This document shows, in pieces, positions 1 to 64,000 of a stretch of DNA of 64,000 nt. How positions within the stretch are numbered: the first letter of the stretch is position 1; each line of letters begins with the position of its first letter. The DNA comes from an uncultured bacterium (GTDB lineage: Bacteria; Patescibacteriota; Gracilibacteria; Absconditabacterales; Absconditicoccaceae). Under the pieces are notes generated by a model that was not told the DNA's origin, did not search any database, and worked only from the letters and a program-made list of their open reading frames with translations. The stretch lies in NCBI GenBank assembly GCA_903953935.1, contig CAJBLF010000015.1:1039-65038 (forward strand). Direction: 5' to 3'. The translations under genes were made by a program, and so were the position numbers.

Positions 1-340
1 CTACCCCGATAGAAATTCATCCGAGAATAAGCCCAACCTGTAATCCTACAATACTAAATCCTACAAAAAGGGAAAACACCACCAACACATAAAATATAAT
101 ATCTCCTATCAATGCAGAGACATTCTCAATATCTTTATTTCCTTTGACGATAAAATTTTTGGTAATCTTGCCTTTGAGATACGCTGCTAATATCTTGGAT
201 AATGACATCAAAAACAAACTTAGAACGATTGCCAAAATCACAGAAATTAGCTTCGAGACAAAAGGATTTTCATACATCCTCAATAAGAACCCTCGAAATG
301 TTTCTGTAACCGATCCTGCTGCCGCACCTAAAGTATTCAT
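1..340 (-). CDS. Mechanosensitive channel (MscS-like) membrane protein, N-terminal part; gene runs off the left edge
   Basis: ATG at 338-340. The N-terminus has several hydrophobic helices. The track ORF stops at TGA 17-19, but with TGA=Gly the frame continues (..VGLILGgISIGV) to base 1. The family call rests only on an MscS-like TM3 pattern. Confidence 0.4.
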
Positions 341-350
341 GCTATAGCGC

Positions 351-382
351 TTAAACGACTAAATGATGAAACGACTAAACGA
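351..382. repeat. Tandem 8-mer array (TTAAACGA CTAAATGA TGAAACGA CTAAACGA) just upstream of the minus-strand start codon at 340
   Basis: Read directly. The same 8-mer family recurs at 55229-55268 in front of fusA. Confidence 0.8.
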
Positions 383-743
383 TACTGTAAGCTTTTTAGT
401 CATCTTAGTAATTATAACCAGATTCGTGAAAAATGCAAATTTCCTTCGGAAATTTATGCCTCGGCATAATTCTCTCATCCAAAACTTTTACAAAATTTTG
501 GTGTTCGAAATATCCATTCTTCAACCAAAACTATTGAAACATATTTTTGGAGGAGAATGTACAAATTCCACCATATTTACCTTATTCCGGCGTTAAGATT
601 TGGAGCCGGAATCTATAACTAGAGTACTAAAGCATGGATTCTCTCTTTCAAACCTTGACACGAGCATGAGGTTACCACTGAATTGCCTTGATACTTACTA
701 CAAGATTTATAGTATAGTCGTATTTATCTTTACTCATAAAGAA

Positions 744-2805: not shown

Positions 2806-3321
2806 ATGAAAAAACAAATTTATGTGACATTTTGCATCATTGGATGCATATTGTTCCTCGCTTGGGCTGGATTCAGAACTTACCATGGCATTCAATTTGA
2901 CCGCAATTGTGATGGCTTTCTGAAACGTGCCGCCGATGCCAATACGGTTGATCTGGCAAAACAGCAACTCCAGCTTGCAGTAAATTACTGTGACGCTAAT
3001 GGATTTACTGTAAACTCCGGGTATACATCCATATGGTACAATACACCTGATGAAGAAATTGGCTTTTGGTATAAAAACCTGGAAGAATCTCTTATAGGAT
3101 TATCCAAAGTCCCACCTGATGCTAGTGAATTGGAAAAAAGCAACCAGCTGATGAAACTCCGGGAGACTCTATTAGATGACGACAGTGATGGCACTACTGT
3201 GACTTGCCCTGAAGGCATTTCCATATATCCATACAACAATGGGTATTTCTGGTGGGCTATTGTTTCGTTTATCATAGCAGCCCTATTCGGAATTCTCGCC
3301 TATCGCGAAAGTCAGTATTAA
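2806..3321 (+). CDS. Hypothetical membrane-anchored protein (N- and C-terminal TM helices)
   Basis: Intact 171-aa ORF, TAA stop, hydrophobic ends. No family recognised. Confidence 0.55.
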   Translation: MKKQIYVTFCIIGCILFLAWAGFRTYHGIQFDRNCDGFLKRAADANTVDLAKQQLQLAVNYCDANGFTVNSGYTSIWYNTPDEEIGFWYKNLEESLIGLSKVPPDASELEKSNQLMKLRETLLDDDSDGTTVTCPEGISIYPYNNGYFWWAIVSFIIAALFGILAYRESQY

Positions 3322-3375: not shown

Positions 3376-3376
3376 A

Positions 3377-7376: not shown

Positions 7377-8657
7377 CTATAAACTTGGTACAGGAAATTT
7401 TAAACTGATCTCTCTGACTTTATTTCTCAGTTCTGCTAAGACTTCTTCATTATCTTTATTTTTGAATGCTTGATCCATATATTCAACAATTTGTTTTACC
7501 TCTTCTTCTTTCACTCCTCTAGTAGTCATCGCTGGTAGACCAATTCTCAATCCAGATGGGCGAAATGGAGGATTTGGATCGTCGGGTATAGTAGATTTTG
7601 ATGTTGAAATTCAGATTTTATCTAATGTTTTTTCTGCGACAGATCAATCTAATTCAGTACCACTAAAATCAAGAATCACCATGTGATTCTCTGTTCATCC
7701 CGTCACTAGTTTGTATCCAAGAGCCAATAACTCGGACGCTAAAACTTGTGCGTTTTTGAGGGCTTGCTCCGCATATGCTTTGAATGCTGGTGTAGCTGCT
7801 TCATGTAATGCCACAGCGATAGCGGCAATAGTATTCATGTGTGGTCATCATTGCATACCAGGGAATACTGCTCTATCGATTCTCGTAGGAATATTTTCTA
7901 TCGTATCGTCAGGTTTTTTGAGTGGATTGGAAACAACTCATTTACTAAGTATCAACGCTCCTCTGGGTCCACGAAGTGATTTGTGTGTTGTAGTCATCAT
8001 CACATGAAAACCATAATCCAATGGGTTCTTCAAAAGTCATGCAGCGATAAATCCTCCGATATGGGAAACATCAGCGAACGCAATAGCTCACACCTCCTTT
8101 GCTATTTCTACGAATTTTTCATAGTCGAGTTCTCTTGGATATGCAGAGAATCCTGCAAGAATAATTTTTGGTTTGTATTCATGCGCCAATGTACGAACTT
8201 GATCAAAATCAACGGTCCCATCAGCCTTTGTTTTGTATCTCATAAAATTAAATACTTTGGAAAAAAAGGTAACGGGTGCTCCATGAGTCAGGTGTCATCC
8301 ATGAGAAAGATCCATCCCGAGAATAGTGTCTCCAGGATTCATCAATGCAGAATATACACACAAATTTGCTGCTGCACCAGATAATGCTTGCACGTTTGCA
8401 TGGTCCGCATGAAAAATTTCTTTTGCTCTATCGATAGCGAGTTGTTCTATAGTATCAGTATTTTCTTGTCCTCCATAATATCTGCGACCGGGAAATCATT
8501 CAGAATATTTATTGGCAAAAACCGAAGATTGTGCTTCAAGCACTGCAGGAGATTGGTAATTCTCACTTGCAATAAGCTCCATCCCCTCTGACTGCCTTTT
8601 TTGTTCGGCGAGAATCGCTGTGTAAATATCATGATCTACATTTTGGATTTTTTTCAT
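7377..8657 (-). CDS. glyA: Serine hydroxymethyltransferase
   Basis: ATG 8657 to TAG 7377 in one frame. N-terminus [39 protein letters not shown] and LSHGgHLTHG, with TGA at conserved Gly positions. Confidence 0.9.
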
Positions 8658-17139: not shown

Positions 17140-18723
17140 TTATAAAACTCTTCTAAGCTCATCCAAGGTAGTTTCCCCTTGGAGCATCTTTATGATACCA
17201 TCTTCTTGAATTGTTAAAAATCAATTTTCTCTAGCTTTGGCATATAAGTCGACCCCAATTTTTCCATCTACAATCATCTTTCTGAGATCATCAGTTATTT
17301 CAAATGTTTCAATAATTGCCATTCTTCCCTTATATCAACTTCCATTACATTCGTCACATCCCACGATTGCAGGTACTTTCCCATCAAATGGTAGAATTAA
17401 TTTAGAATCGATGTCAGTTATTTTTTTGATAATATCTTTTATTTCAGCTTGTTCTCAATAATCTGCATCCCTTTTCGTTCCACAACGAGGACAAATTCTT
17501 CTGACTAATCTCTGTGCTACAATAAGGTTCAACGCTGGTGCCAACATGTATGGTTTGATTTCCATACTCGATAATCTCGGAATAGATTCTATTGCAGAAT
17601 TCGTATGTAATGTTGTAAATACCAAATGTCCTGTCAATGCTGCGTTTATCGCTATTTCTGCTGTTTCCTTTGATCTCGTCTCTCAGATAAGAATAATATC
17701 CGGATCATGTCTCAGAATTGATTTGAGTCCAACTTCATAGGTATATCATTTGCCATAATTGATCTGTGATTGTTGAATTCATTTTATCTCATATTCGATA
17801 GGATCTTCAAGAGTAATAATCTTTCTTTTTCCATCATTGAGATATCCCAAAATTGTATACAGGGTCGTTGTTTTTCATGAACCTGTAGGTCAAGTAAATA
17901 CCGTAATTCCTGTGTTTTTTTGTATATTTCTTTTGAGTATATTATATGTTCTTTCTGAAAATCCTATTTTCTCAAATGTAGTTATACCCCTTGTCGGATC
18001 TAAGAATCTGAGTACAGTACTTTCCGACCCCACTCCAGGCATGAAGTTTACTCTGACATCAATCTTTCTTTCTAATCCATTCACATCAGTTGCTTCAAAT
18101 ACAAACCTTCCATCCTGAGGAAGATAATCTATATTCATTTTGGTTCCTGATATAAATTTTATTTTCTGAAGATATTTTCTAAAATCAGCGTGAGTAAATT
18201 CGAGTAACTCTTGCAATACTCCATCTATTCTTATCCTTACAATCACCCCATCTTCTTGTGACTGAAAATGAAGATCTGATGCTCATGTCTGAAATGCTAA
18301 TCTTATAAATTCCATGATAAAATCTCCGGGCTCCATAGCATCTCTTTGTTCATATATTTTCTGAATCATTGCAATCGCCCCTTTTCCTGCAGCTTTTTTT
18401 TGTTCTGAATCAGATTTTCTCTTCTGTATTGCTATACCTTCCATGTCGTCATACCAACTCATTGCATAAGCAAATCATTGTGATGACGTATAAAATACCT
18501 CATATTTATATCCTTTGTCTTCTAGATTTTTAAGCAACGCTTTGAGTCATTCAGGAAAATTATTTGTGGTAAGCACTTTGAATGTATTTTTATCTTTCGA
18601 GAAAATTAATGTCTCTATTTTTTGAGCGGTCTCTTGAGCAATAATTTTGATTTGCTCAAAATTGGGACTTATTCCTTGTAAGTCATCAATTTCTAAAATA
18701 CTTTTACTTAACGTTGTTGGCAT
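17140..18723 (-). CDS. pilB: Type II/IV secretion-family ATPase (PilB/GspE-like)
   Basis: [15 protein letters not shown], Walker A gPTGSgKTTT, Walker B DPDIILIgE, His box [12 protein letters not shown], Cys cluster CPRC..CDEC. One frame from ATG 18723 to TAA 17140. Confidence 0.85.
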
Positions 18724-18877: not shown

Positions 18878-19369
18878 ATGAACGACAAAACCACAAAAAC
18901 CAAACTCACAGAATTGGGATCAGATCCATCTCATGAAAAAGCTACGCCTGGCAATTTTCGTGCCTGTGTTATGCTCGATTCATGTATATACCAAATCGGG
19001 GAAGATGTACCCGCCCGTGAAGATGCATTCACCCTTTGTTCAGAATACAGAGGTATGGACGCACCTATCCAGATTTTCGATGATCAGGGCAAGGAACACA
19101 TCATCAATGGGCAGCTCAAAATGGGCAAAGACAATTCATTCTTCCACAATGCTTCGTCATATTTTGACAAGTTGATGAACCAGACCTACGTCAGCAAATC
19201 AGAGATTCTTTCTTTGAAAAAAAAGCTCAAAGTACTCAAAGAATCTGGCTCATCAACAAGCTACAACAATATTTTAAACAGAGTTACTGGACTTTCTGCC
19301 AAGGCCAAGGGTAAAAATCCTGTTGAACTCTTAAAAGAAGTATATGATGATTTCAAACAGATCTCTTAA
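18878..19369 (+). CDS. Hypothetical protein
   Basis: Intact 163-aa ORF, TAA stop, followed by a terminator. Confidence 0.5.
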   Translation: MNDKTTKTKLTELGSDPSHEKATPGNFRACVMLDSCIYQIGEDVPAREDAFTLCSEYRGMDAPIQIFDDQGKEHIINGQLKMGKDNSFFHNASSYFDKLMNQTYVSKSEILSLKKKLKVLKESGSSTSYNNILNRVTGLSAKAKGKNPVELLKEVYDDFKQIS

Positions 19370-19877: not shown

Positions 19878-20051
19878 AGCAATATGTATTAATGATTTTA
19901 TTTTTTTTCCTTATATCTAAATACTTTACATTTTCAATAGTTTATATCTAATTAACGGACAAATCGTTTTTTTTATTTATAGTTGAATTTCAGAGACTAA
20001 TTTATACAAATAAATTATGCATTTTTACTTATTAGTTGATCGTTGGTATAC

Positions 20052-22754
20052 ATGGCATTTACTCCAGCAATTATCCAATATCTTGATATCAAGAAAGAAC
20101 ATGAAGATTGTATCTTATTTTTTCGTATGGGAGATTTTTATGAGACTTTTTTTGAAGATGCAAAAACCTGTAGTAAAGTCTTGGATATCGTTCTAACGAG
20201 CAAGAATAAAAATTCTGAGAATTCCGTGCCTATGGCAGGTATTCCCTATCATAGTGCAGACAAATACATAACAAAACTTATCAATCATGGGTATAAAGTC
20301 GCTATTGCCGAACAAACTAGTGAACCTATTCCCGGAAAAATTGTAGAAAGAGAGGTCGTAAATATCATAACCCCAGGAACCTATATCCAAGAGACCAAGA
20401 AGGAATTTACATATACGATGGCGCTAACGTTTCTCCCCCATACTACGTGACAAAACTACCACATCGCTTGGGGTGATTTTAGTATCGGTGAGTATTGGAC
20501 TAAGAGCTTCGCTGATATCGCTGAGATGCAAAAATTCATCCTCACTATCAAACCCGTAGAGCTTATTTTTGATGTTGATTTTCCAGAAAAAGAAATGGTC
20601 ACTCTACCCGTCCAACACTATTTAAAATGTCTTATTTCCGTATGGGACTTACCCCCTGATCCAGAAAAATTTCTTGCATGAACGACGGGAGTACAACATA
20701 GCGCAAGTTATGGAAAGGCCATTGAAGAGTGAAGACTAGGTACGATCGCACTCCTCCTCTATTATTTGAAACACACCCAAAAACATGCACTGACCAATAT
20801 CACGAAAATCTCCTTTCATAGTCAGGATACCTATCTTATTTTGGATGAAGTCACGATAAAGAATTTGGAAATACTGTCGTCTACCTATGAGAGCAATGAA
20901 AAATATAGTTTATTGAATATTATAGATACTACCCAAACAGCTGGTGGTGCAAGACTTCTTCGTTATGTTATTACTAATCCTATCAAAGACAAACAACAAC
21001 TTGAACGAAGACTCACTACCATAGAAAAATACATGAACGATGAAACAATGGAACGATTGATTGATGGAAACATATATAGAGAGCATATTAGCAAACGCAT
21101 TCATCAGATGTTGAGTCATGTTCGTGATATTCCAAAAATTATAAGCATACTCTTATACAAGAAACTATTGCCAAATACTTTTATCAAGCTCAGAGCAACC
21201 TTGAGAATTTTTTTCGAAAATAAATTTTTGCTTGATGAATTAAGCTACTTGTGACTCAATGAAACTATCCAGTGACATGTACAACACATATACAACCATC
21301 TCGAACAACTTTTGAAAAACGATGAAGAATATAAAGATGATATAGATTTCATCCGTGATGGGTATCAAGAAAAAATAGATGAACTCAGAAAGATAGCATA
21401 TCACAGCGATGAGCTTCTCATGCAGTATCAACAAGAATTGGCAAGAGTCTGATGAATACCAAACGTAAAAGTAAAATACGTATTGAATCAGTGATATTTT
21501 CTTGAGGTAACGAATAAAGACATTGAGACTTTTGAAACAAAGATCTCAAATTCAGAATTGAGAATGCAGAATGCAGAATGAAAATTTGAAATAGTTCGTA
21601 GAAATACGCTGAAATGAGGTCAGAGATATTCTTCTCCGTACCTGGAAAATCTAGAAGTACATATATTGCAAGCAAAAGACGATTTACGCAGTTTGGAGTT
21701 TACATTACTCCAGCAAGCACAAGAAAAAATAGCATGATGAGTAAAAGAGTTGAATGAGTTTGCTGAACGAATAGCTCGGTTGGATCTATTTGTTTCTCAG
21801 GCACTATTAGCAAAAGAAAAATCTTTTGTAAAACCCGAATTTATTTCATGAGACAGTTTAACTATTATCGAATGAAGACATCCCGTAATCGAAAAATACC
21901 TTCCCCTTGATCAACAATTTATACCAAATGACCTTATACTAAATGGAGAATTGAATATTGACGTATCTTCGAATGAGGGAAATTGAAAATTAGAAATTGA
22001 AAAATCTGATTTTCTACATATCATTACATGACCAAATATGTGAGGTAAATCAACCTATCTGAGACAGAATGCACTTATTGTTTTGATGGCACATTGTGGA
22101 TTATTTGTACCTGCAAAAGTATGCAAAATAGGAATAGTAGATGCGATTTTTGCGCGTATCGGTAGTGGTGATATCATCGCAAAAAATCAATCTACGTTTA
22201 TGACAGAAATGATTGAAGTAGCAAACATATTAAATAATGCGAGTAAAAAATCATTCATCATTTTCGATGAATTATGACGTTGAACAGCAACGTATGATGG
22301 TCTTGCATTAACCAAAGCAATACTAGAATATCTCGTCACGAATATCGAGGCAAAAACATTGATAGCGACACATTATCATGAATTAATTCAGTTGGAAGAG
22401 ACTCTGCCTGGAGTAAAAAACTTTTCCGTCAGTGTCTATGAAACAGAAAAAGAAGTTGTCTTTATGAAAAAGATCGTCAGATGATGAGCGAGCAAGAGTT
22501 ATGGTCTCGACGTAGCAAAACTCGCATGAATACCAGCGACTATAGTAGAAAGAGCAAAATATAATCTCGAACATCTTGAACAAAACACAAAAAACACAGG
22601 ACAAGAAAACACTCCTATACCTTTGACCATTGATCTTCCACCTTCAAAAAATTATGAGAAAGTACATACCATACTCCAGAGCTATGATTTAAATAGCATC
22701 ACTCCTCTGCAAGCATTACAGATTTTAGACAAAATCAAAGACGAATTGCTGTAA
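20052..22754 (+). CDS. mutS: DNA mismatch repair protein MutS
   Basis: [17 protein letters not shown]-loop [15 protein letters not shown], DELgRgTATYDG, THYHEL. About 900 codons in one frame. TAA at 22752. Confidence 0.9.
21551..21592 (+). repeat. Heptamer array (TTCAGAA TTGAGAA TGCAGAA TGCAGAA TGAAAAT TTGAAAT) inside mutS
   Basis: In frame it encodes [15 protein letters not shown]. Confidence 0.8.
21977..22004 (+). repeat. Heptamer array (GGGAAAT TGAAAAT TAGAAAT TGAAAAA) inside mutS, just before the P-loop
   Basis: In frame it encodes EGNgKLEIEKS. Confidence 0.8.
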
Positions 22755-29604: not shown

Positions 29605-30111
29605 TTAATCTTCTTTCTCCTCAGAAAAACCACTCTCTTTTCTTGTCTTGGGGTCCATGACCTCTATCTCGACTTCATCCAGCCTGGGAATATCATAGAG
29701 GAATCCACCGGCATACTGCATATCATCCATTATGAGTCTTCCGAGACTGACAACCATGATAGGCCTGAAAAAATCGGTTTTGGTCTGAATAAAAATCTCC
29801 AGTGCTTCACTGATGGTCACTCCCGCTTCTGTCTTATGCAGATCAGGAAACAATTCAGTAATACGGAAGAGTTTAAGCGTTTTCCGTCCTTTCTTGCGAA
29901 CGATGAAGAAGATGGCGCGAAGCTCATTTTCTGCATCATCCTTGGTCAAGATAGTCTTATCGAGCAACGATTTGGGGTTTTTTGATTCAACAGCCCAATA
30001 CAACATCTGACGATCCGGATTTACAGGAAGGATTCCGAATTTCTTAAACATTCCCTCAAGAAGAGGCACACACTGACTGTGTTTTTCTGATAAATTGGTA
30101 ATTTTTGCCAT
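29605..30111 (-). CDS. Hypothetical protein (no TGA)
   Basis: ATG 30111 (MAKITNLSEK..) is preferred. The longer track ORF would overlap the upstream gene's 3' end. TAA stop. Confidence 0.5.
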   Translation of the reverse strand: MAKITNLSEKHSQCVPLLEGMFKKFGILPVNPDRQMLYWAVESKNPKSLLDKTILTKDDAENELRAIFFIVRKKGRKTLKLFRITELFPDLHKTEAGVTISEALEIFIQTKTDFFRPIMVVSLGRLIMDDMQYAGGFLYDIPRLDEVEIEVMDPKTRKESGFSEEKED

Positions 30112-30181
30112 ACGCAGAATTATTATTTTATTATTATTTTGTATATATACCATACATATTTTACACAAAATAGCAAGCTTT

Positions 30182-34046: not shown

Positions 34047-34487
34047 CTATAGGTCTTGAGATACTATACCCTGTCAATTGGCATAGGTTACAAAGTAATG
34101 TCCTTTATTAAAAAATCCTCTGATAGCATCTTCAATCGCTTCGACCGTTTCTCCATGTTCCTTTAAGAATGTCCTGATGGCATCTTCGTTGAACAATGTT
34201 ATCGGGTATTCTCCCGGCAATAAACTGCCTGTACGTAGGAAATACTTAATTTTTTCAATAGTCACTGTTTTGAAGTTTTCATCGGATGGTCTGGGAGTAT
34301 CCACTCTCTTGAACAGCAACGGTGAGATTTGATACGTCGGACGGATAAGTTGTTCCTCAAATTTTGAATAGTTTTGACCAGGAGGATCAATTCTCCTCTC
34401 AGATTCATACACATCAGTCTTTACTGTTTCGAAACTTTTTATGAACTTGATGATGCTAGCAATCATCATAAAAAACAGATTTTTCAT
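34047..34487 (-). CDS. Hypothetical protein
   Basis: ATG 34487. The track stop at 34074 is TGA, and the frame continues 9 codons to TAG 34047. Confidence 0.5.
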
Positions 34488-34620
34488 TGGTTGCGTTTTT
34501 GTATTTGTTTTACATTTATATATATTTTATATAATATGTCAATACCAAGTAATAATTTTTTTGCTGGTAATTTTTGAGGCTTTCCTTACATTTATATGGA
34601 ATTTAACATTCCATATTCTC

Positions 34621-35682
34621 ATGATACTAGGTTTAGCACCCATGGACTGATTTACCGATTGTGCTTTTCGCCAAATAACGAAAGAAATTTTTGATGTATA
34701 TGGAGAAAAAGAGAAATATACCTTATGATTATGGACTGAATTTATGAACGCTGATGGCTATATTATCAATCCGACATGAGTAATTAAGCACTTATTAACT
34801 GACACAGACCAGTCTCCTGTAATCGCACAAATCTTTTGAGCAAATGAGGGAATGATAATGAAATGTTTCGATGATATTCAGAGTAAATATTTTCATCATT
34901 GAAAATTGAAAATTGAAAATTGAAAATTCAGCTTTGCGGGTATCGAATTGAATATGGGTTGTCCTGCAAGAAACGTCATGAATACCTGATGATGAAGTGC
35001 ATTGTTGAAAGAAAGAAAACAGACATTAGCTATCATAAAAAAACTTTCATGAATTATGAAGATACCATTGAGTATCAAGACAAGAACCGGTAGAGATGAA
35101 CACGATCTCAAAGAACAAATGAATTTTTTGATCGAAATAAGTACCTATGTCAGCATGATCACTATCCACGGAAGAACTGTAAAACAGTGATATTCTGCAG
35201 ATAGTAACTGGGATTTTATCTACAAACTAAAACATAAAGCAGATAAAAAATGTAAGATACTCTGAAATGGTGGAATAAAAAACTATGAAGATATAGCATC
35301 ATTGGCAAAAAATCTAGATGGAGTTATGATTGGTCAAGCAGCTATTGGGAACCCACGAATCTTTACGCCACACACTCCAAGTAGAGAAGAAATAAAAGAA
35401 ACCATTCTGAAACATCTCGACTATATGATTAGCTATGAAAACTATTTTCAAGACCAAAAAGCGAGCTATCAAGATATGTTGTCGATGCCAGAACATTTAC
35501 CTATGAATATCAGAAATCCACAAGCTATTACGCTTGCAGAATTTAGAAAACATTTGTTCCAATATGTAAAATGAATTCCATGATCCAAAGAATTTAAGCA
35601 GAAAGTAAGCACGATAAGTGAATATAATCCGCTCGTACAAGAGATTCAGAAATTTTTTGAAAATGGTGACCAAAATGAATAA
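34621..35682 (+). CDS. tRNA-dihydrouridine synthase (Dus family)
   Basis: LAPMDgFTD, IELNMGCPARNV, NTgggSALL (three consecutive TGA at 34987-34995), TIHGRT, MIGQAAIGNP. Confidence 0.85.
34899..34926 (+). repeat. Perfect 4x TTGAAAA heptamer array inside the dus gene
   Basis: In frame it encodes HHgKLKIENgKF, just before the NMGCP active-site region. Confidence 0.9.
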
Positions 35683-36446: not shown

Positions 36447-36473
36447 ATCTTAGTTGTTTGTACTGAGATCATG

Positions 36474-39014: not shown

Positions 39015-39392
39015 CTATTTTTCTTTTTGTATCGTGTCACAAGGACATGGAACATTTGGTTCAAAGTATACAAAATAACCAGATGTCTTACCGTATCCCG
39101 TACGATCATTAGGAGCAAAAGCAACCATACGTAATTCTGTATGCTGCCGTATAAATGATGATAAATGGGTTCCGAAATCACTCTGGTGATACTTAAAGTA
39201 ATACACCCCATTACCAAAATCAGTAATTTCATCAGCTTGAATGGTAGGCGAAACCTTTTGAGGTAAGGAATCTACCACAACATATTGCTTTCCGTCTTGA
39301 CCGGTAATGGTTTTTGTATTCTGTTTTTGTTCGTTTCCACAACCAGCAACAATAATCATCATAATTATTGCTAAGAAAATTTTTGTTTTCAT
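39015..39392 (-). CDS. Lipoprotein, hypothetical (no TGA)
   Basis: MKTKIFLAIIMMIIVAGC lipobox. TAG stop. Confidence 0.6.
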   Translation of the reverse strand: MKTKIFLAIIMMIIVAGCGNEQKQNTKTITGQDGKQYVVVDSLPQKVSPTIQADEITDFGNGVYYFKYHQSDFGTHLSSFIRQHTELRMVAFAPNDRTGYGKTSGYFVYFEPNVPCPCDTIQKEK

Positions 39393-39455
39393 GTTTTTAA
39401 CATTTATTTTTTGTATTGTATTTATATATATTTATATGTAATTGTCAATACAATA

Positions 39456-39494
39456 AAAAAAACTCTCCCGAAGATATCGAGAGAATCACGTATA
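39456..39494 (-). terminator. Terminator module, copy 2 (39-nt exact repeat)
   Basis: AAAAAAACTCTCCCGAAGATATCGAGAGAATCACGTATA is identical to copy 1. Confidence 0.7.
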
Positions 39495-39509
39495 CGTGTA
39501 TTGGCTATA

Positions 39510-40448: not shown

Positions 40449-42497
40449 ATGGAAGTCATCCAAAACGTAGTGTATGATACCGACTATAGCGCATATGTCG
40501 CTGACGGCGGATATCCACTCTTTCAAGCTTCTGCTACAACAGAAAAGCTATGATTTTTCGATAAAATATTATCCAACATATTTCCTAATCTTTATGCAAA
40601 AAAATGATGAACAACAAGTACAGGTAACGCAGGCAACAAAGCAAAAGATGTCTTACCTGAAAATGTCGCCATTAAAGATAAAACATTGAGGGATCAGGTA
40701 AAATACCTCCTAGAACTTCCCGATAACGAATATAATGACAAACTACTTACGAGCAAACTCAGACAATACATCTCCGAAACAGAAAAAGAATATGCATCTG
40801 TTATTAATGATTACAAGACTCATATAGCCCCTTCCTACTGGGAATTTAAATCCACACATTATAATGTGTCTGGAATCTTCTGAAAAACGTATTACGCACA
40901 AAGCTATCCTTCGTATATCGACGCACTTTGGACAAGAGATATTTTTGGTTTACATGCAAAACGAGATATGAGCCGATTCATTTTCCCTGAAGATGACGCA
41001 GCTATTCAGTCGATGTTAAAAAATAGAGCAACTCAACTGAAAGCAGAAGTAAAAGATGCCATGCAAAAAGGAATCACCCTCGATATGGAAATAGAACAGC
41101 AATATAGAGACGTAGAGATGATTAGAGAAAAACTTACCACACGCGAGGAAAGATATTTTGAAAATTCTTTCTACATCAATGTTTACGATGATGACGAAGA
41201 AAAACTCAAAGAAACGGGAAAAAAGATTGAACAAAAAATATCAGGATATGGAATAAGAATCAAAAGTGCAATCCAAAGAATGGATGAATGATTTGTTTCA
41301 TGATTACCACTCTGTACTGATGAACTTGCTATCAGCAGGAGCTCAGTCACTTCATCACTTGCTGGAGGATTTCCATTTATTTCCAACGATATGGTTAGTG
41401 ACACAGGAATTCTTTATGGCGTCAACTTACATACTGGATGATTAGTAATTTTTGATAGATACAATCAAAAACTACCAAACATGAATGGTGTTATACTTGC
41501 TACATCATGAGCTGGAAAATCCTTTACGGTAAAACTTGAGGTTTTGAGATATCTCATCAACGGTATCGATGTTATCATCATTGATCCAGAAAACGAATAT
41601 AAGGCACTCTGTCAGAAAGTAGGCGGTACCTATGTAAACATCGCAACAAATTCACAACAATATCTCAATCCTTTTGATATTCCGCCGAAAATAGAAGATG
41701 TAGAATATGGAAAATGAGATCTTTTGAGAAGTCAGATTATGAGTTTGATATGAATGATTCAGATTCTTATCTGAGGATGTACGCCAGAAGAAGAAGCATT
41801 GTTGGATAAGGCGCTACAAAATACGTATTCATTGAAATGATTTTCCCTAGATGCCGATAATTATGAAGGCAAACAACCACCAATCATGGGAGATCTTATG
41901 AATGTACTCGAAGGCATGGAAGGATGAGATAGACTAGCATTAAGATTAAGTAAATATGTAACCTGAACCTTTGGAAAAGTATTCAACAACTACACCAATA
42001 TCGACATCAACAATAGACTTACCGTAATAAGTATTAGAGATTTGGAAGATGCACTAAAAACTCCTGCCATGTTCAATGTACTCAACTGGATCTGGACTAA
42101 AGTAAGATCCCACAAGAAAAAGAGAATGCTCGCTTGCGATGAAGCATGGATTATGTTCCAAAATGAGACATCAGCAGAATTTCTTTTTGGACTCACTAAA
42201 AGAGCAAGAAAGTATGGATTATGAATCACCGTTATCTCGCAAGATATCGAAGATTTCGTAAAAAGCAAATACGGTAAACCAATCATATCCAACTGTGCTC
42301 TGCAAATATTATTAAAACAATCTACGACTTCGATCAGAGTATTAAATGAACTTTTGTGACTTTCTGATGCTGAGCAGAAAAGACTGGTCTCGGCAGGCAT
42401 ATGAGAATGATTGATTTTTGCTGGTAATCAGCATGTGGGAGTAAAAATACTAGCTTCCCCAGAAGAGAAAGCATTTATCACGACTGACGTAATATAA
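40449..42497 (+). CDS. virB4: VirB4/TraC-like type IV secretion ATPase
   Basis: Walker A GVILATSgAGKSFTVK, IIIDPENEY, Walker B MLACDEAW, GLgITVISQD. About 682 codons in one frame from ATG 40449 to TAA 42495. Confidence 0.75.
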
Positions 42498-46486: not shown

Positions 46487-46711
46487 ATGCGTACGCTCTT
46501 GATTATCGTACTTATCCTTGTGTGAATAATATTTATAGGATCAGTGTTATTGATGTCTCCAAAATGATGACTATGATTGGGTATTGGCTGAATGGCTTGA
46601 TGAAATGAATACGGAAGCAAAAAAACTCTCGAAACGAAACTAAAGAAAGTTGCCCTCATTACTGGTGTCATCTTTGTAATCATATCGCTTGTTTTACCGT
46701 ATACCAAGTAA
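46487..46711 (+). CDS. secG: Preprotein translocase subunit SecG
   Basis: 74 aa with two TM helices around the Gly-rich loop SPKggLgLGIGgMAggNEYGSKKTLE. Seven TGA codons. Confidence 0.75.
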
Positions 46712-49513: not shown

Positions 49514-50596
49514 ATGATACATACGATGTTAGATAAATTGGCCAGTATAGAAAAAAAATACCTTGAGCTCAGAGAACAAATGATGAATCCTGAAATTATT
49601 TCTGATAACAAAAAATCTATCCAGCTCAGCAAAGATGTCTCTGGAATGCAGGAGATTTATGATCTCTATCAAGCATATAAGAAGGCACATCAGCAAAAAC
49701 AGGAAGCACAAGACATGATAGATACTGAACAGGATCCCGAAATGCTCGATATGGCAAAGGAACAACTCAAAGAATCTGAAACACTTATCGACGAATTGGA
49801 TGCAAAAATAAAGATTTCCCTCCTTCCCAAAGATCCGAATGACGATAAAAATATCTTTCTAGAAATTAGACCAGCTGCATGAGGAGATGAAGCGTGATTA
49901 TTCGCTACAGAACTTTTGAAAATGTATCTCTGATACGCAACAAAAAAATGATGGAAACCAGAAATTACCGAAGAACAACTCTCAGATATCGGTGGAATTA
50001 AATTCGTGATGGTAAAAATCAGTGGAAATAGCGTTTATTCTATTATGAAATTTGAAAGTGGAGTACATAGAGTACAAAGAATACCTTCAACAGAATCACA
50101 AGGAAGAGTTCATACTTCGACAGTTACTGTAGCTATCATGCCAGAAGCTGAAGATATAGACTTTGTTATTGATCCAAAAGACGTAGAAATGGATACCTAT
50201 GCTGCCTCTAGTAGTTGAGGTCAGAATGCCAATAAGAATCAAACATGAGTAAGATTACGCCATATACCAAGCGGATTAATTGTTAATATCTGAGACAGTA
50301 AATCACAATTACAAAACAAAGATAGAGCATGGTCAGTCCTCAAGGCAAGATTGTATCAAATAGAACTCGATAAAAAAACTGCTGAAACTAAATCACTCAG
50401 AGGAGATCAGATTGGTGGTGGTGATAGATCAGAAAAAATCAGAACATATAATTATCCTCAAGATAGAATAACCGATCATCGTATCCATCAATCATGGTCA
50501 AACTTACCGGTCTTTATGACATGAGAAATTGATGATATGATCAATGCGCTAGTACTCGAAAACCAGACAAGACTCTTGGAAGAAAGCATGAAATAA
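49514..50596 (+). CDS. prfA: Peptide chain release factor 1
   Basis: [17 protein letters not shown] (RF1-type PxT tripeptide) and SSgGQNANK (the first Gly of GGQ is TGA at 50216). Confidence 0.9.
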
Positions 50597-50820: not shown

Positions 50821-52428
50821 ATGAAATTGATTTTCGTTACGTGAGGGGTGATTTCCGGTCTAGGAAAATGAATAATGGCTGCATCTATGGGTAAGCTACT
50901 GAAAGCGTGTGGATACAAAATCAATATCATGAAGATGGATCCCTATCTCCAAATTGATGCAGGGACGATGTCTCCTTTTGAGCATGGAGAGACCTTTGTT
51001 ACTACTGATGGATTCGAAACTGATCTTGATCTCTGACACTACGAAAGATTTATTGATCAAAGTATGACCAGCAAAAGCAGCGTAACTTCAGGACAGATTT
51101 ATCTTTCTGTCATTGAAAAAGAAAGGAAGGGCGATTATCTTGGGAAAACAGTCCAAGTAATCCCACACATCACCAATGAGATTAAAGAAAGAATAACCTC
51201 ATTTGCAGCAGACAATGATGCTACCATAGTAGAAATAGGAGGAACCGTGTGAGATATAGAATGATTACATTTTATCGAGGCTATCAGACAACTACGTCAG
51301 GAATTGGGAAAAGAAAATGTAATGATTGTCCATGTTGTACCTATGATTTCTGTCTCTACTTCTGGAGAAATGAAATCCAAAGCTATCCAGCATTCTGTTA
51401 TAAAGCTCAGAGAATTGTGACTCCACCCCAGCATACTCGCTTGCAGAACACCGCGTCCTATGGATCAAGAACTTAAAGATAAATTATCTATGTTTACCGA
51501 TATAGATACTGATCATATTATAGAGGTCCTTGATCAAAAATCTATTTATCAAGTACCAATAGCCCTACAACAACAAGATATTCACCTCTTGATACAGAGA
51601 AGACTGTTTGGTGAATTCAGAGAACCAGATATGTCAAATCGAGAAGCATTGGTAGAAAAAATAATGCAACCAAAGCAAACACTTAATATTGCACTTGCAT
51701 GAAAATACACTCATCTCACCGACAGTTACATGAGTGTTATAGAAGCATTGAAACATGCATGAGTACAATTCGATAGTGCTATCAATGTACATTTGCTCGA
51801 TATGGAATCGTTTGAATGACAAGATCGAGAAACTACATTATCTTCATATATCAATGAACATAATATCAAAGGTGTTGTCGTACCTGGTGGGTTTGGTTCA
51901 AGATGAATAGAAGGTAAAATCAATATTGCACATTACTGTAGAACCCACGATGTACCCTATCTCTGATTATGTCTTGGGTTACAGATTGCTGTGATCTCTT
52001 TTGCAAGAAATATATGCTGAATCTCCACCGCAAACTCTACTGAATTCAACGAAGAAACACTGCATCCCGTAATAGATATCATGGAAGAACAAAAGCATAT
52101 CAACCAAAAATGATGAACTATGCGTTTAGGAGCATATGAAGCGATTTTGAAACCATGAAGCAAGATCCAAGCGTTATATAATCAAGATAGTATCCAAGAA
52201 AGACATCGTCATAGATATGAGGTCAATCCAGCATATCATGAACTCTTAGAAAACAATGGTATGGTTATCAGCTGAATGTCTCCTGATAGAAAATTGGTAG
52301 AATATATAGAACTACCTAACCACCCGTATTATACAGCCACGCAATCACATCCAGAATTCAATTCTAGACTAGATAAACCACACCCCCTCTTTCTATGATT
52401 GATCAAGGCATGCTTACCACAACTATAA
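50821..52428 (+). CDS. pyrG: CTP synthase
   Basis: [13 protein letters not shown], [10 protein letters not shown], IEIGGTVgDIE, GFGSRgIEGK, Lg[14 protein letters not shown]. 17 in-frame TGA. TAA at 52426. Confidence 0.9.
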
Positions 52429-53124: not shown

Positions 53125-55224
53125 TTATTCCGCGTCCATAGCTTTGATTTTTCCAGATCTTTCTTCGATAATTTTCTTTGCAACATTTTCTGGAACTTTC
53201 TCGTATGATGCGAAGCTCATAGATGATTGAGCTCTTCCTTGGGTATTTGATCTCAAATCTGTGGTATATCCAAACATCTCAGACAATGGAACTTTAGCTT
53301 TGATAACTGCTGCATTTCCTCTCTTGTCTTGTCCCTGGATCATTCCTCTTCTAGAAGACAAATCTCCCATTACATCTCCAACATAATCTTCTGGAGTCAC
53401 TACTTCTACATCCATAATAGGTTCCAAGATACATGGACCTGCTTTCATAAACGCGTCTTTGAATGCTCTATATGTTGCGATTTTAAACGCTATTTCTGAT
53501 GAATCCACATCATGATATGATCCATCGTATGCGATTACTCTTACATTGATGATAGGATATCCTGCCAATACTCCTTGAGCAACAGTTTCTTTTGCTCCTT
53601 TATCGATAGCTGGAATAAACTCTTTTGGAATCGTACCTCCTGTCACTTCATCTTTGAATTCATATTCTTTTTCCATATTTTTTTCTAATCTCAACAATAC
53701 ATGTCCAAATTGTCCTCTACCTCCTGTCTGTCTCTTGAAGATTCCTTCTCCCTTAGCATTTTGGGTAATTGTTTCTCTGTAAGCAACTTGTGGTTTACCT
53801 GTATTTACTTCTACTTTATGTTCTCTCTTGAGTCTATCTACAATAATTTCTAGATGCAACTCTCCCATACCTGCAATGATAGTTTGATTGCTTTCTGGGT
53901 CAGAAAAATATTTGAATGAAGGATCTTCGTATGCAAGTTTAGAAAGTGCTATACCCATTCTTTCTTGATCAGATTTAGTCTTTGGTTCGATAGCGATATC
54001 GATAACTGGTATAGGGAACGTCATCTTTTCTAGAATGATAGGATTTTTCATATCACAAAGTGTGTGTCCTGTTCTTGTGTCTTTGAGTCCAAGGAACGCA
54101 CAGATATGTCCTGCATGTATTTCTGAAATTTCTTCTCTCTTGTTTGCGTGCATAAGCAACAACCTTCCCACTCTTTCTTTTTGTCTTGTAAGTGGATTGA
54201 GCAATGTATCTCCTGTCTTAATGATACCTGAATATACTCTTACGAAGGTAAGTGTACCTACGAATGGATCAGTAGCGATTTTGAAAGCGATAGCTGAAAC
54301 TGGATCAGTATCGTTTGGTTGTCTCTCAAGTGTTTTAGTTTCATCATCTGGATCAAGTCCCTTCATTGTTCCTCTATCAAGTGGAGTTGGTAAGAAATCA
54401 ATTACCGCATCAAGCACTAATTGTACTCACTTGTTTCCAAGTGCAGAACCACATAAAATAGGATATAAATCACTCTTTATCGTTCCTGCTCTGATAGCTT
54501 TTTTGATAAGTTCAATGGATGGTTCTTCTCCTGCGAGAAATTTTTCTGCTAATTCATCATCAAACATAGATACCTTATCGATCATTTCTTCTCTATATTT
54601 CTTTGATTTTTCAAGCATATCAGCTGGAATTTCTTCTTCATGTACTTCAATACCTTTATCTCCTGAGAACGTATACATTTTCATAGTAAGCAAATCGATG
54701 ATTGCTTTGAATTCGTCAGCTTGTCCTACAGGAATCTGAAGAACGACTCCTTTGTCTGTAATTCTAGATTTGATAGAATCTACGGACATATAGAAATCAG
54801 CTCCAAGTTTATCCATCTTGTTTGCAAAGATGATTCTTGGCACACCATATTTATCAGCTTGTCTCCAAACTGTTTCTGTCTGTGGTTCAACTCCTTGTGA
54901 ACTATCGAGCAATGCTACTGCACCATCGAGAACTCTCAATGATCTTTCTACTTCAACAGTAAAATCCACGTGTCCTGGGGTATCAATAATATTGATTTGA
55001 CAATCATGCCAAAAACACGTTGTCGCAGCAGAGGTAATAGTAATTCCCCTTTCTTTTTCTTGTTCCATCCAGTCCATTTCTGCAGCACCATCATGTACTT
55101 CTCAGATTTTGTGTTTCTTTCCTGTATAAAACAACACTCTTTCAGTGGTAGTAGTCTTACCTGCATCAATGTGAGCCATGATTCCAATGTTTCTCACATG
55201 TAACAGGTCTTTTCGCTCGGCCAT
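53125..55224 (-). CDS. fusA: Elongation factor G
   Basis: AHIDAGKTT, [25 protein letters not shown], [12 protein letters not shown], [12 protein letters not shown]. 699 codons with only two TGA. Confidence 0.95.
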
Positions 55225-57431: not shown

Positions 57432-58076
57432 TTATAGATGTTTTTTTGTCTGGTATTCTTCCCATTCCATAATCATAGTACCGAATGATCTTTCAAACAG
57501 TATAATATACTGTCCGTTTTCTTCAACAATACCCCCATTATAGACAACGTTTATACGTTTCTCAGGAAACAGCGTACACAATGCAAATGCCATACCCAGC
57601 TCGATATGTGTCGCATACAGTCGCTTAGGATGATACTCTATAGGAATAATTTCCTTTCGCATCATCTCTTCAAGCTTCTTGAACCATGCATTATATCCTC
57701 CGAACTTTTCATCAAAAATCCTCTGCAAATGCAGTATATTCAAAGGATCATCAGCGGAATATGCAATCATATGAAACAGCTTCTCCGGATGTAGATAAAT
57801 ATCTACGAATTTCACTCCGATATCAAAGTGAGAACCTTCGGATTTTCCATCATAAAATACGTGTGTTTCTGCAGCAGCAATATTTACTGTAGTGTTTTGT
57901 ACACATATTTCATGTCCGCTTCCGGATTGGTTTGTATCCAAATGAGGAAGATGGACTTTATATCCTTGTGATTCTAACTTTTGTTTGTATGCTACCAATT
58001 CCTGTCGTGTAGCATCATCTGCTTTTCTTACCGAACAGATGATAAATACCGATTTTTTTTCTGTTTTTGGTTCCAT
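57432..58076 (-). CDS. Nucleoside 2-deoxyribosyltransferase/DNPH1-like protein (no TGA)
   Basis: VFIICSVRKADDATRQELVAYKQKLESQGYKVHLP and SEGSHFDIG resemble the Rcl/DNPH1 pattern (CGSIRGG.., S.G.G.E.G). A second, degenerate half has HIELGMAFAL. Confidence 0.4.
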   Translation of the reverse strand: MEPKTEKKSVFIICSVRKADDATRQELVAYKQKLESQGYKVHLPHLDTNQSGSGHEICVQNTTVNIAAAETHVFYDGKSEGSHFDIGVKFVDIYLHPEKLFHMIAYSADDPLNILHLQRIFDEKFGGYNAWFKKLEEMMRKEIIPIEYHPKRLYATHIELGMAFALCTLFPEKRINVVYNGGIVEENGQYIILFERSFGTMIMEWEEYQTKKHL

Positions 58077-60488: not shown

Positions 60489-60722
60489 TTCATAAAACTA
60501 ATGATAAATACTCATTAACAGATACTGCATTATTTCAGCTTTGAACTTTATGCTTTCGGCTAAAATATAACATTTGAGGGGTAAAATTCAACAGTAGTTG
60601 TATGGTAGTTGTGTGTCACCTACCACATCATTTTTTTCTAAAAAAACAAGTTAAAATTACCGCATATCTTGGAATATTTGCAAATCTTTTTGTTGGGCTA
60701 TATAATAGTAGATAAGTACTTT

Positions 60723-63700
60723 ATGTTACTCAAAAAACCAATCATGGAACAAGAAAAGCAAGCATTCTTTCCAAAACTCATTAGCATTCTCTTGATAGCT
60801 ATGGGAATCTTTCTAGGTTTCTACGCCTTTTTTGCTAATGCTACTACGCGGACTTTGCCTGGATGAGCAACATGGAACAATAAGAACTATCTCACATGAT
60901 TGTTTCGAGACAACGCCCCAACCACTGGCGATATTATCACTGCACTGTATGGAAGTGGCGCAGAAGCAACTGCTTACACCAAAAATCGATCTTCAAATGT
61001 TTGCGATCCTGCTGCCATGGTAGTAGATTATATATATCCTGGGCCAGATACTATTCCACAATCATTGATACATAACACCATATACGTACTAGCATCATGA
61101 AATTATGTATTATCTCAGTGAATTACCACAGACACATCTTGTGTTGCTATAATTGGTAATTGAAACGTAAAATTGTATTCAAGTGGTTATCTCGATGCTA
61201 TGATTTGGATGGATGTACAACCAAATGCGATATTTGACAACATTGATATAGATGGGACAAATAATGGTTTATGAGTCAACCATACTCCTAATAATTATTG
61301 AATAAAGTATCAGGGTTGAACACATTCACACACAATAAACAATATAAAAGCACATCATAATAATTTTTGAATATATTATAGTGATGCTACTCGTGACACC
61401 ATAAGCAATAGTCAAATTTACAACAATTCTTACTGAATAGTTTTTGATGGAGCTTCTTACAACAATGTAAATACTAGTCAAATATATAACAATAGTGAGT
61501 GAATATATTTAGAAAATATATCAAACTATAATACTATTGCCGATGCTCATATTTACAATAATGATAATTGAATAAACATATCTAGTGGCCATAATACCAA
61601 CAACAATATACACACATCTCAGATTCATAACAATCAAGATAAATGAATTTATTTAAACAGTTGATCTAGCAATAGTATTGTTGACTCTCAAATTTACAAT
61701 AATGATAATTGAATTTATTTAGACAATAGTACCAATAACAACATCAATAATGCTATTATTTATAACAACAATGGCAATTGAATACTTTTCAATAATTCCT
61801 CATATAACAGCATCAACAATTCTCAAATCTATAATAGCCAAAATGGAATATATTTAAATTCTAGTCCAAACAACATTATCAACAATTCTCAAGTCCATAA
61901 TAACAACAATGGAATACCTTTATTTACCAATTCCAATAATAATATATTACATAAGGTAGAATCATATAATAATAATTTTTGAATTTGGATAAGCAATTCT
62001 ACTAATACTAGATATTATGATACCCTCTTATTATTTTGAAATTGAACTAATATTGTTGGACCTTGAACAGCAATCATTTCATGATCTAATAGTGACATTA
62101 CAGGTTCTATGCTTTCATTAAACGATTGAGTATTAAGTACCTGATGAACTATGGATTGCTCTCGAATCACCAATCCCACTACCTGATGAATATATTTACA
62201 GACATGAGATTTATGTACTAGCACATGACAAGTAGTATCATGGATATGAAACACAGCGAACAATTATAGATACTGAAGCAATGTACTTGCACAGAAACGT
62301 CCTGCACACCGAAGCTGATGAACTATCGCATTATATTGAATACTATGATCAGACTATGATACCGGCAGATATATCTGACAATACTGACCAATCGGATGAA
62401 CATTCAACATCAACAACAATACTGGTATAACATATACAACGAATGTTACTTTTTACAATACCGTTACTTGAGGAAGCAGCGTAACAGTTACTGATCTAGA
62501 ACATTGGGAGTTTATGAGCGAAAGTTATTGACCATCATTTAGTTATCTTCTTTACTGAGGCACAACCTGATTAAAAACAATTTATGCAGATTTTTCTGGC
62601 ACAAATTGAACCTTTATGGCCATGGATACTATCATTTATGATATTCCTGATACTACTCCGAATCAATTTAACTTTACTGCAATGACTGGAGTAGAATTAA
62701 ACACATTATATACATCTAATGTTATTACCATAACTTGAATAACTCCATGATTTTTTACTTGAGTATCTATAAATACTTGAAGTTTATTTAAAAATTGAAT
62801 CAATATTAATCAATCTTGAACTGGTTGAAATGGAGATCAATTTTATATAACATTACAATCTAGTGATACCTATTACACAAAAACAATTTCAACGATAAAT
62901 ATATGATGAGTAACTGGAAATTTTGAAATAGAGACTATTATGGATACTCCCATTCCTCCTTCTTGAGGTTGAATGGTACGAGAAAACAATAATTTTATTG
63001 ATAGTACTTTTTGGTCACAATCCCCAACATCTTGAGATATTATAATTGCTTTATATGGTATAAATACTTGAGACGAAACAGCATATACACAAAATCGATT
63101 TAACAACAATTGTAATCCAGCATATATAAACCTAGTATATAAGGATCCATGAACAAACACGCTACCCCAACAACTAAGTAATAATACCATCTATATCCTC
63201 AATTCTGGTAATTATACTATAAGTTATGTTAATTGATTATGGATGAGTGGATGTACTGCTATAGTTTGATCCGGTAATGTCACTATATATAGTACGGGAA
63301 CATTAAATTCTTATGCTATGATTTATGCTAGCTGAAGACAAAACAATATCATAGACAACATAATGATAGACTGACTATCCAATGGAAGTGGAGGTACTCA
63401 CACAAAAAACAATCACTGAATTTATTTAGAACATTCTTCAGGCAATAGTATCAACAATTCTCAATTCTATAATAATGGTAGTTCATTATCCTTGTACAAT
63501 AGTTCAAACAATAGCATTAGCAATTCTCAAGCTTACAATAATACGTATTATTGAATATATATTTGAAATAGTTCAAATAATAGCATTAGTTATTCTCAAG
63601 CTTACAACAATAATTCTGCCTGAATATACCTCTATAATTGCTCAAATAATAGTATTAGCTACTCTCAATCATACAACAACATAAATGATTGAATATATTT

Positions 63701-64000
63701 ATCAACTAATTCGAACAACAATAATATAAACAATTCTCAAACTTACAATAACACTAGTGCTTGAATACATTTAGTATCTAGTTCAAACAACAATAGCATA
63801 AATAACTCTCAAGCTTATAACAACATGAGTTATTGAATATATTTGGTAGCTAGTTCAAGTAATAATAGTATAAACAACTCTCAATCCTATAATAATCCAT
63901 ATTGAATATATCTACAGTCTAGTTCAAATAATAATAGCATAAACAACTCTCAATTCTATAATAATCTCTATTGGATTTATATAACTAGCTCTACGGGTAA
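60723..64000 (+). CDS. Giant right-handed beta-helix (PbH1-type) repeat surface protein, 5' part; runs off the right edge
   Basis: N-terminal TM/signal. Repeats of about 22-24 aa of the form S.NNSI.NSQ.YNN..gIYL. More than 1090 codons in one frame with no TAA or TAG. The minus- and plus-strand track ORFs inside it are artefacts. Confidence 0.7.

Follow-up and report, generated by a model that had tools for sequence, protein, structure and literature searches.

In-frame UGA codons and two uses of CGA and CGG in the genes of an uncultured Absconditabacterales bacterium

Genes of the window and their in-frame TGA codons

The stretch of DNA analysed here (the window: 64,000 nucleotides, positions 1039-65038 of contig C15) belongs to the metagenome-assembled genome G000, and the subject of this work is the genetic code in which its genes are written. 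In the bulk of these genes UGA is a glycine codon and CGA and CGG act as tryptophan codons, and a minority of genes have no TGA and carry CGA and CGG on invariant arginines. The genome comprises 1.297 Mb in 65 contigs, with a GC content of 33%, a completeness of 96% and a contamination of 4%. Judging by the names of its protein matches it appears to be that of an uncultured Absconditabacterales (SR1) bacterium with about 1.3 Mb of DNA. The fusA product (EF-G) shares 83-93% identity with records that bear the title Candidatus Absconditabacterales or Absconditabacteria, and the homologues of one G000 protein of the FG-GAP/CTD family carry the names Absconditicoccaceae or Gracilibacteria. An earlier reading of the window (the original prediction) had proposed that it fits this lineage and that it is read with NCBI translation table 25 throughout; the labels of the nearest relatives, Absconditabacterales, agree with the first of these proposals.

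The window holds 426 in-frame TGA codons, which make up 34% of its glycine-family codons. With TAA and TAG as the only stops, 87% of the window lies in open reading frames (ORFs) of 100 codons or more, whose median length is 246 codons, whereas under table 11 the share is 36% and the median 135 codons, so that a standard-code annotation is fragmented, as had been foreseen. Delimited by TAA and TAG, 52 of the 53 window ORFs end in one of these codons and the 53rd runs past the window edge; every complete gene ends as the original prediction had said. Pfam matches back the gene names used below, among them MutS, T2SSE, SHMT, PheT, Dus, Transgly, RF1, CTP synthase, EF-G and a VirB4/TraG-type ATPase, together with others.

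In the motifs that follow a lower-case g marks a glycine written as TGA. The gene mutS (20043..22754, plus strand; 903 codons) has 22 TGA, two of them at 22029 and 22041 in its P-loop ITgPNMgGKST, and matches the Pfam domains MutS_I-V; its 17 same-genus matches hold 4-21 TGA each and the sister-family orthologues hold none. The pilB/T2SSE ATPase gene (17140..18723, minus strand; Pfam T2SSE, E 4.5e-104) contains 11 TGA, including those at 17890-92 and 17875-77 in the Walker A motif gPTGSgKT, and relatives have a glycine-family codon at 99 of its 110 aligned TGA positions. For glyA, encoding SHMT (7377..8657, minus strand; Pfam SHMT, E 2.7e-152), the figure in relatives is 50 of 50, and when its 10 TGA are masked as X and the product is compared with PDB entry 3gbx, nine of the ten X fall on glycine. 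The gene prfA, which encodes release factor 1 (RF1; 49514..50596, plus strand; Pfam PCRF and RF-1), has 8 TGA, and the first glycine of its GGQ motif is the TGA at 50216. The pyrG gene for CTP synthase (50821..52428, plus strand; Pfam CTP_synth_N and GATase) has 17 TGA and 2 CGA; in the one relative sampled a glycine-family codon stands at 16 of the 17 TGA positions and a tryptophan-family codon at both CGA positions.

Both unusual codons also meet in the mtgA-like transglycosylase gene (32538..33284, minus strand; Pfam Transgly), with 4 TGA (ggSTITQQ, 32928-33) and 7 CGA. Two of these CGA lie on tryptophans conserved in E. coli MtgA (NLFL[CGA]QG and MEIg[CGA]SK), and at 45 of 56 positions CGA is opposite tryptophan-family codons in relatives. 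Further genes written with TGA are dus (34441..35682, plus strand; Pfam Dus), with 14 TGA and the motif NTgggSALL at 34987-34995, and the gene for the VirB4/TraG-type ATPase (40449..42497, plus strand; Pfam P-loop_TraG and DUF87), with 18 TGA and the motif SgAGKS at 41508. The fusA gene (53125..55224, minus strand; Pfam-supported) has just 2 TGA in 54 glycine-family codons, both of which align to glycine in E. coli. A secG-like gene (46487..46711, plus strand), named by sequence resemblance alone, has 7 TGA in 74 codons, and a gene for a beta-helix surface protein (60669..63998, plus strand; Pfam Beta_helix and NosD), which runs past the window edge, has 68 in frame. The original prediction had placed in-frame TGA on motif glycines of MutS, PilB, VirB4, RF1, MtgA, Dus, SHMT, EF-G (KIgEVHDG) and SecG, and it proved right in every case.

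UGA, CGA and CGG in the bulk of the genes

The meaning of single codons was examined by masking. ORFs of the whole genome delimited by TAA and TAG were translated with the tested codon as X and searched by blastp against 350 kb of E. coli K-12, and the E. coli residue opposite each X was tallied; the best-scoring ORF per locus was kept, and 113 ORFs were left after the removal of antisense-against-antisense matches. After this filtering 383 of the 659-661 non-gap TGA columns (58%) were on E. coli glycine and under 2% on tryptophan, and the GGN codons were on glycine in 51-64% of their columns in the same test. With a glycine background of 8.1% the binomial probability of the TGA result is about 3e-234. 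Moreover, TGA swaps with GGA, GGT, GGC and GGG between same-genus orthologues.

A tRNA with anticodon UCA is encoded at C57:c[23949-24022]. As predicted by ARAGORN it has 74 nt and carries G1-C72, C2-G71, G3-C70 and U73, the bacterial glycine identity set, and its T-arm core CGGGTTCGAGTCCCGT is common to tRNA-Gly UCC and GCC. The comparison genome G035, which is of the same genus and 99% complete (all but its last 907 bases were used), has a near-identical gene with one base different. A separate tRNA-Trp(CCA) is present in G000, and tRNA(UCA) probably reads UGA.

The prfA product has the PST tripeptide of the RF1 type, and the genome encodes no other class-I release factor; prfA is also the sole match in a tblastn search with E. 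coli RF1, and it scores under the cut-off for prfB, the gene of release factor 2 (RF2). The RF-1 domain occurs twice in the genome, in prfA and in a 141-aa GGQ protein that has no PCRF domain and is read, from its sequence, as probably ArfB-like. The prfB model (TIGR00020) scored above its cut-off in none of 19 same-genus genomes and in all of 12 genomes from other families of the same class; RF2 is lost from the whole genus and RF1 is kept. From the column tests, tRNA(UCA) and the lack of prfB, UGA=Gly is therefore established in this genome, where UGA supplies about one third of all glycine codons. This assignment is already known for the clade. The original prediction had named three signs of it, TGA columns aligning to glycine with few on tryptophan, a glycine tRNA with anticodon UCA and the absence of RF2, and each of them was found.

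The arginine box behaves differently from table 25. In 81 E. coli columns CGA was opposite tryptophan in 17%, phenylalanine in 10% and tyrosine in 10%, with arginine outside the top three, whereas AGA, AGG and CGT were on arginine in 49-53% of their columns and CGC in 32%. When contig C15 was compared with 36 same-genus loci, CGA paired with CGA 239 times, TGG 75, CGG 49 and AGA 3; CGG paired with CGA 22 times and with TGG 13 times; and TGG paired with TGG 200 times, CGA 107 and CGG 73. The same is seen in 465 reciprocal-best pairs of G000 and G035, where CGA was opposite CGA 1348 times, TGG 450 and CGG 67, and no arginine codon was among the nine commonest partners of CGA. Ribosomal proteins encoded on contig C46 also put CGA on conserved tryptophans. 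Across the genome CGA is used 32 times and UGG 37.5 times per 10,000 codons.

The tRNAs for these codons are in line with this. Both tRNA(UCG) and tRNA(CCG) have G73, G1.U72 or A1-U72, and U instead of A at position 20, and they are nearer to tRNA-Trp(CCA) than to the arginine tRNAs; tRNA-Arg GCG and UCU have A20 and A73. No tRNA with anticodon ACG was found in G000 or in G035. Codon statistics and tRNA identity show CGA and CGG to be tryptophan codons in the bulk of the genes, and the charging of the two tRNAs with tryptophan would be the corresponding biochemical step. Since glycine is the meaning of UGA and tryptophan that of CGA and CGG, the code in use is table 25 extended by CGA/CGG=Trp, and we have high confidence that these two reassignments account for the bulk of the genes.

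Two minor points concern the same data. An apparent alignment of TGG with arginine (18%) came from antisense ORFs matching E. coli antisense ORFs, and it was gone when the best ORF per locus was kept. ARAGORN gives the tRNA(CCG) genes at G000 C45:22960-23032 and G035 C1:317025-317095 a 4-bp anticodon stem with a U27-U43 mismatch; according to a 2026 paper in Nucleic Acids Research, all Absconditabacterales tRNA(CCG) have 5-bp stems.

Genes without TGA

About 5-7% of the genes follow the standard code: they have no TGA, write tryptophan only as TGG, and use CGA and CGG interchangeably with CGT, CGC and AGA on invariant arginines. In G000, 64 of the 923 genes with at least eight glycine codons have no TGA, against 4.6 expected, and the share of TGA per gene peaks sharply at zero (48 genes), falls to a low between 0 and 5% (10 genes) and has a broad mode at 20-50%. 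The zero-TGA class has a GC content of 38% versus 33% in the rest, TGG at 130 versus 53 and CGG at 26 versus 8 per 10,000 codons, and an arginine usage rich in CGC and CGT (CGY). The pattern is the same in G035, where 20 of 614 genes lack TGA (1.8 expected) and TGG stands at 142 versus 49.

The class differs from the rest also in front of its start codons. The fraction of A at positions -25 to -1 is 0.58 in zero-TGA genes and 0.34 in the rest (P = 1e-19), and in G035 0.62 and 0.36 (P = 3e-9). The A peak of these leaders is at -13 to -11, and an A-rich motif at that position has been described as characteristic of Bacteroidetes. In G000 TTGACA is enriched upstream of zero-TGA genes (26% versus 5%), but TAnnTTTG, the -7 promoter motif of Bacteroidota, shows no enrichment (7% versus 6%). 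The signals are thus mixed, the A peak being a match, and on balance they make expression in a Bacteroidota host less likely. In the 25 nt upstream of starts across the whole genome, Shine-Dalgarno-like motifs are nearly missing from both gene classes (1-2% of genes), and the leaders of the main gene class are T-rich at -22 to -15.

The ThyA family is the clearest control for the two codon dialects. TGA-free ThyA has CGA or CGG (CGR) on the equivalents of R99, R127 and R166, and all its seven tryptophans are TGG. Among the eight genomes with this gene R166 is CGG or CGA in six and CGC in two, and the conserved tryptophan cells are TGG in 54 of 56 and GTT in two, with no CGA or CGG. In the TGA-containing paralogue, which is adjacent to it in G000, the same arginine columns are AGA or AGG (AGR) or CGT, and the same tryptophan columns mix TGG, CGA and CGG. 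The two genes, TGA-free ThyA and a ThyA-family gene with 6 TGA, are located at C43:3342-4172 and C43:4434-5273. The native ThyA-family paralogue of some genomes, at C1:140367-141278 of G035 and in its orthologues in G039, G010, G003, G031, G007 and G001, has neither TGA nor CGA/CGG and reads alike under both codes.

GuaB has CGR on the invariant arginines of YRGMGS and DRY. Five guaB genes of recoded genomes have no TGA in 41-48 glycine codons each (0 of 222 in total), and in their arginine columns CGA swaps with CGC, CGT and CGG. In G000 guaB adjoins a TGA-rich ORF with 14 TGA (C62:462-1904 and C62:2067-3548); the gene upstream of guaB in relatives is of the IMPDH family. The PhoH-like protein likewise has CGA and CGG on invariant arginines, with CGR swapping with CGY and AGR, and TGA is absent from 10 of its 11 genes and occurs once in the other. 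Column 177 of this family (G000 C51:32307-33818) is TGG in G000 and G002 and CGT, CGC, AGG or another codon in nine relatives.

In the window the class is represented by an aldose-1-epimerase-like gene (36859-37623, plus strand; Pfam-supported), which has no TGA in 15 glycine codons, a GC content of 41%, an A-rich leader and tryptophan by TGG only. Its CGA at codon 45 and CGG at codon 73 stand on the invariant arginines of RGGIPxxFP and QHGFxR, positions that are arginine in PDB entries 3k25 and 2ciq, with 23 homologues aligned. Its codon columns in four recoded genomes show the same standard-code pattern. A fresh import of this gene is unlikely, its homologues of 54-93% identity being found only in recoded contigs with the next match at no more than 30%. 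The gene lies in a stretch of 2.1 kb (35683-37824) between dus and a PriA-like gene. These two flanking genes are 7 nt apart in the relative G006 and about 250 nt apart in G007, and the slot of the epimerase is therefore variable. Taking all these families together, the standard-code state of the TGA-free genes is kept across the genus.

Five other ORFs of the window have no TGA. The one at 2806..3321 (plus strand) has 12 GGN, 5 TGG and 1 CGG and a leader with 64% A, and its CGG is opposite an arginine-family codon in the sole relative that holds the gene. The ORF at 18878..19369 (plus strand) has 10 GGN, no CGA or CGG, and 60% A in its leader. A lipoprotein-like ORF (39015..39392, minus strand; 10 GGN, leader 68% A) belongs to a TGA-free cassette spanning 39015-40260, and in the adjoining ORF 39510-39854 the CGG position has an arginine-family codon in one of two relatives. 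Finally, the ORF at 57432..58076 (minus strand; no Pfam match) has 13 GGN, 3 CGA and 60% A in its leader, and the ORF at 29605..30261 (minus strand), with an uncertain start, has 8 GGN and 2 CGG. The TGA-free genes of the window have housekeeping neighbours (Dus, PriA-like, MutS), and there is no phage hallmark among the Pfam matches.

Elsewhere in the genome the zero-TGA members include Peptidase_C10, SPFH and TPM proteins, a histidine kinase, a PRTase, purA and pyrF (two names that rest on sequence motifs only) and proteins with a C-terminal sorting domain of the type IX secretion system (T9SS). These families are often accessory, and only 15 of the 64 genes have an orthologue in G035. Of 30 genomes of the genus, 27 hold the T9SS-type sorting domain (Por_Secre_tail), each time in a frame of up to 1480 aa without any stop, TGA included. 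The domains SprA_N and GldM_1st of the T9SS machinery gave no match in the 30 genomes, and no control genome matched either.

Decoding of the two gene classes

The best explanation of the whole, to which we give a probability of about 90%, is that UGA is glycine, that RF2 has been lost, that CGA and CGG are tryptophan in the bulk of the genes, and that there is an unexplained minority of genes in the standard code. Several points weigh against it or parts of it. The TGA-free genes themselves contradict a single uniform code. The masked-column test has one organism, E. coli, as its reference, and CGG has just seven direct columns there; CGG=Trp rests on codon exchange between relatives, counts of which are not phylogenetically independent. 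It is from identity elements only that tRNA(UCG) and tRNA(CCG) would be taken to be charged with tryptophan. Of the 15 zero-TGA genes for which G035 has an orthologue, only eight lack TGA in G035 as well. Strong expression may be all that sets part of the class apart (EF-G has 2 TGA in 54 glycine-family codons, and rpsI none). In column 177 of the PhoH-like protein there may have been a change from CGG to TGG, which would be silent only if CGG were read as tryptophan in that gene too.

For the minority itself, the explanation that survives best is that a conserved subset of chromosomal genes is kept in the standard code by selection, under a second decoding regime. We hold it tentatively, at somewhat less than even odds. 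It is what remains when slow adaptation of imported genes and expression-linked bias are both contradicted, as argued below. The subset so kept would include the nucleotide-metabolism enzymes, the PhoH-like protein, the epimerase and the T9SS-type sorting-domain proteins. Its regime might consist in a charging of tRNA(UCG) and tRNA(CCG) that is ambiguous or sorted by gene, in translation components derived from a host, or in the translation of these mRNAs elsewhere than in the cytoplasm of the bacterium, the host cell being one such place. No arginine-type tRNA for CGA or CGG was found in G000 or G035, whose UCG and CCG tRNAs are the same; nor is either synthetase duplicated, there being one trpS and one argS in each of G000, G035 and G033.

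It is doubtful, although not far-fetched, that the TGA-free genes are unadapted imports from standard-code donors, misread with tryptophan for arginine, partly or wholly non-functional and in fast turnover. The higher GC content, the CGY-rich arginine usage and the variable slot of the epimerase would fit this, as would the patchy presence of the genes: orthologues in G035 are few, and of 30 genomes 16 carry the PhoH-like gene and 8 carry ThyA group A. In addition, the nearest outgroup of GuaB is from Bacteroidota at about 60% identity, and the ThyA resembles ThyA of PDB entries (E about 1e-116). However, the families are old and specific to the clade. Close homologues of the epimerase are confined to recoded contigs as described above, identities within the FG-GAP/CTD family are 35-77%, with no named member other than Gracilibacteria or Absconditicoccaceae, and in the GuaB clade, where guaB-purA synteny is conserved, they are 64-98%. 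Over this divergence no TGA was gained, guaB having none and the 11 PhoH-like genes 0-1 each, whereas in core genes GGA pairs with TGA more than with any other glycine codon. Moreover, CGA persists on invariant arginine in four of five guaB genes and CGG or CGA in six of eight thyA genes, and a change of one base to AGA would remove it. The lasting absence of TGA and the retention of CGR on catalytic arginines contradict a slow adaptation of imports.

Still less probable is that the class is the extreme of an expression-linked codon bias, in which codons of scarce tRNAs (UGA, CGA and CGG) are avoided, CGY is preferred and initiation is A-rich. This could explain why EF-G, EF-Tu-like and chaperone-size genes are depleted in TGA (3-10%) and rpsI has none, why leaders are A-rich with TTGACA enriched upstream in G000, and why some members, such as the ThyA-family paralogue of G035, use neither TGA nor CGR. 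Nevertheless contig C46, which carries the ribosomal-protein cluster, has TGA at 27% of its glycine-family codons, and together with the CGA on conserved tryptophans of those ribosomal proteins this contradicts the bias. In the TGA-free class CGG is enriched threefold and not depleted, nucleotide-metabolism enzymes are unlikely to be expressed above EF-G, and a bias cannot account for CGA and CGG on invariant catalytic arginines.

Plain table 25, with UGA alone reassigned and CGA and CGG as arginine in all genes, is very improbable. It would suit the invariant arginines of ThyA, GuaB, the PhoH-like protein and the epimerase, and ARAGORN calls the UCG and CCG tRNAs arginine tRNAs, from the anticodon alone; but the 465 core orthologue pairs swap CGA and CGG with TGG and not with arginine codons, CGA aligns to W, F and Y in E. 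coli, and the two tRNAs, with G73 and without A20, are unlike the GCG and UCU arginine tRNAs. From the proposal of table 25 throughout, the part UGA=Gly stands; the code as a whole does not, since CGA and CGG act as tryptophan in most genes, and neither does "throughout", given a gene minority without TGA and with CGA/CGG on invariant arginine, six of these genes lying in the window. A reading of UGA as tryptophan (table 4), as selenocysteine or as a leaky stop can practically be dismissed: ARAGORN names tRNA(UCA) selenocysteine and low GC is also typical of UGA=Trp lineages, but even the 737 TGA columns before the artefact filter gave glycine 385 times against tryptophan 10 and cysteine 6, tRNA(UCA) has the length, acceptor stem and U73 given above beside a separate tRNA-Trp(CCA), and 426 in-frame TGA occur in 64 kb.

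For table 25, the code of SR1 and Gracilibacteria, Shulgina and Eddy (2021, eLife, PMC8629427) cite Campbell et al. (2013) and Rinke et al. (2013). The present genome resembles it in UGA at conserved glycines, tRNA-Gly(UCA), the lack of RF2, UAA and UAG as stops, low GC and affiliation to Absconditabacterales. It departs from it in that the table keeps CGA and CGG as arginine and the bulk genes here use them as tryptophan, so table 25 mistranslates about 130 codons of the window. Shulgina and Eddy themselves, with Codetta, predict UGA=Gly together with CGA/CGG=Trp for Absconditabacteria, and report tRNA(UCG) and tRNA(CCG) with G73 and without A20 and no tRNA-Arg(ACG). Here, too, CGA and CGG lie at tryptophan columns, the two tRNAs follow these rules, tRNA-Arg(GCG) takes the place of ACG, and CGA usage is close to UGG usage as in the most advanced genome of that study. 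In the portion of that article available to us each codon has one meaning per genome, ambiguity is called untested, and genes of the TGA-free kind are not mentioned, whereas here a conserved minority of genes uses CGA and CGG as arginine and has no TGA. CGA/CGG=Trp matches a published prediction that table 25 does not include; for the TGA-free standard-code class no published description was found in the literature searched.

Code-11-compatible phages of Gracilibacteria and Absconditabacteria have been reported (Liu et al. 2023, mBio, PMC10746230). Their genes, like the present ones, are tied to code-25 hosts, lack in-frame TGA and could be read with either code. Unlike those phage genomes, however, the present genes stand singly on the chromosome with housekeeping genes around them, some in conserved synteny, and their use of CGA and CGG as arginine makes them non-neutral between the codes. 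In Ascoidea and Saccharomycopsis yeasts CUG is ambiguous, with competing serine and leucine tRNAs (as cited in PMC8629427), and CGA and CGG might here likewise carry two meanings within a single cell. The differences are that G000 and G035 yielded no second, arginine-type tRNA for CGA and CGG, that there is one TrpRS and one ArgRS, and that the meanings are sorted by gene rather than mixed.

In practice no single table translates G000 correctly: table 25 puts arginine where most proteins have tryptophan, and a corrected uniform code would put tryptophan on catalytic arginines of ThyA, GuaB and similar enzymes. Two codon dialects sorted by gene in one small genome, and genus-wide, are hard to square with one tRNA pool. 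They bear on the course of sense-codon reassignment, through an ambiguous intermediate or by codon capture, and on how recoded episymbionts keep or exchange genes with standard-code neighbours. As a separate observation on the tRNA genes of G000, the 2.3-kb contig C9 holds nine of them in a tight cluster that duplicates isoacceptors present elsewhere in the genome, and this contig may be a mobile element or a contaminant.

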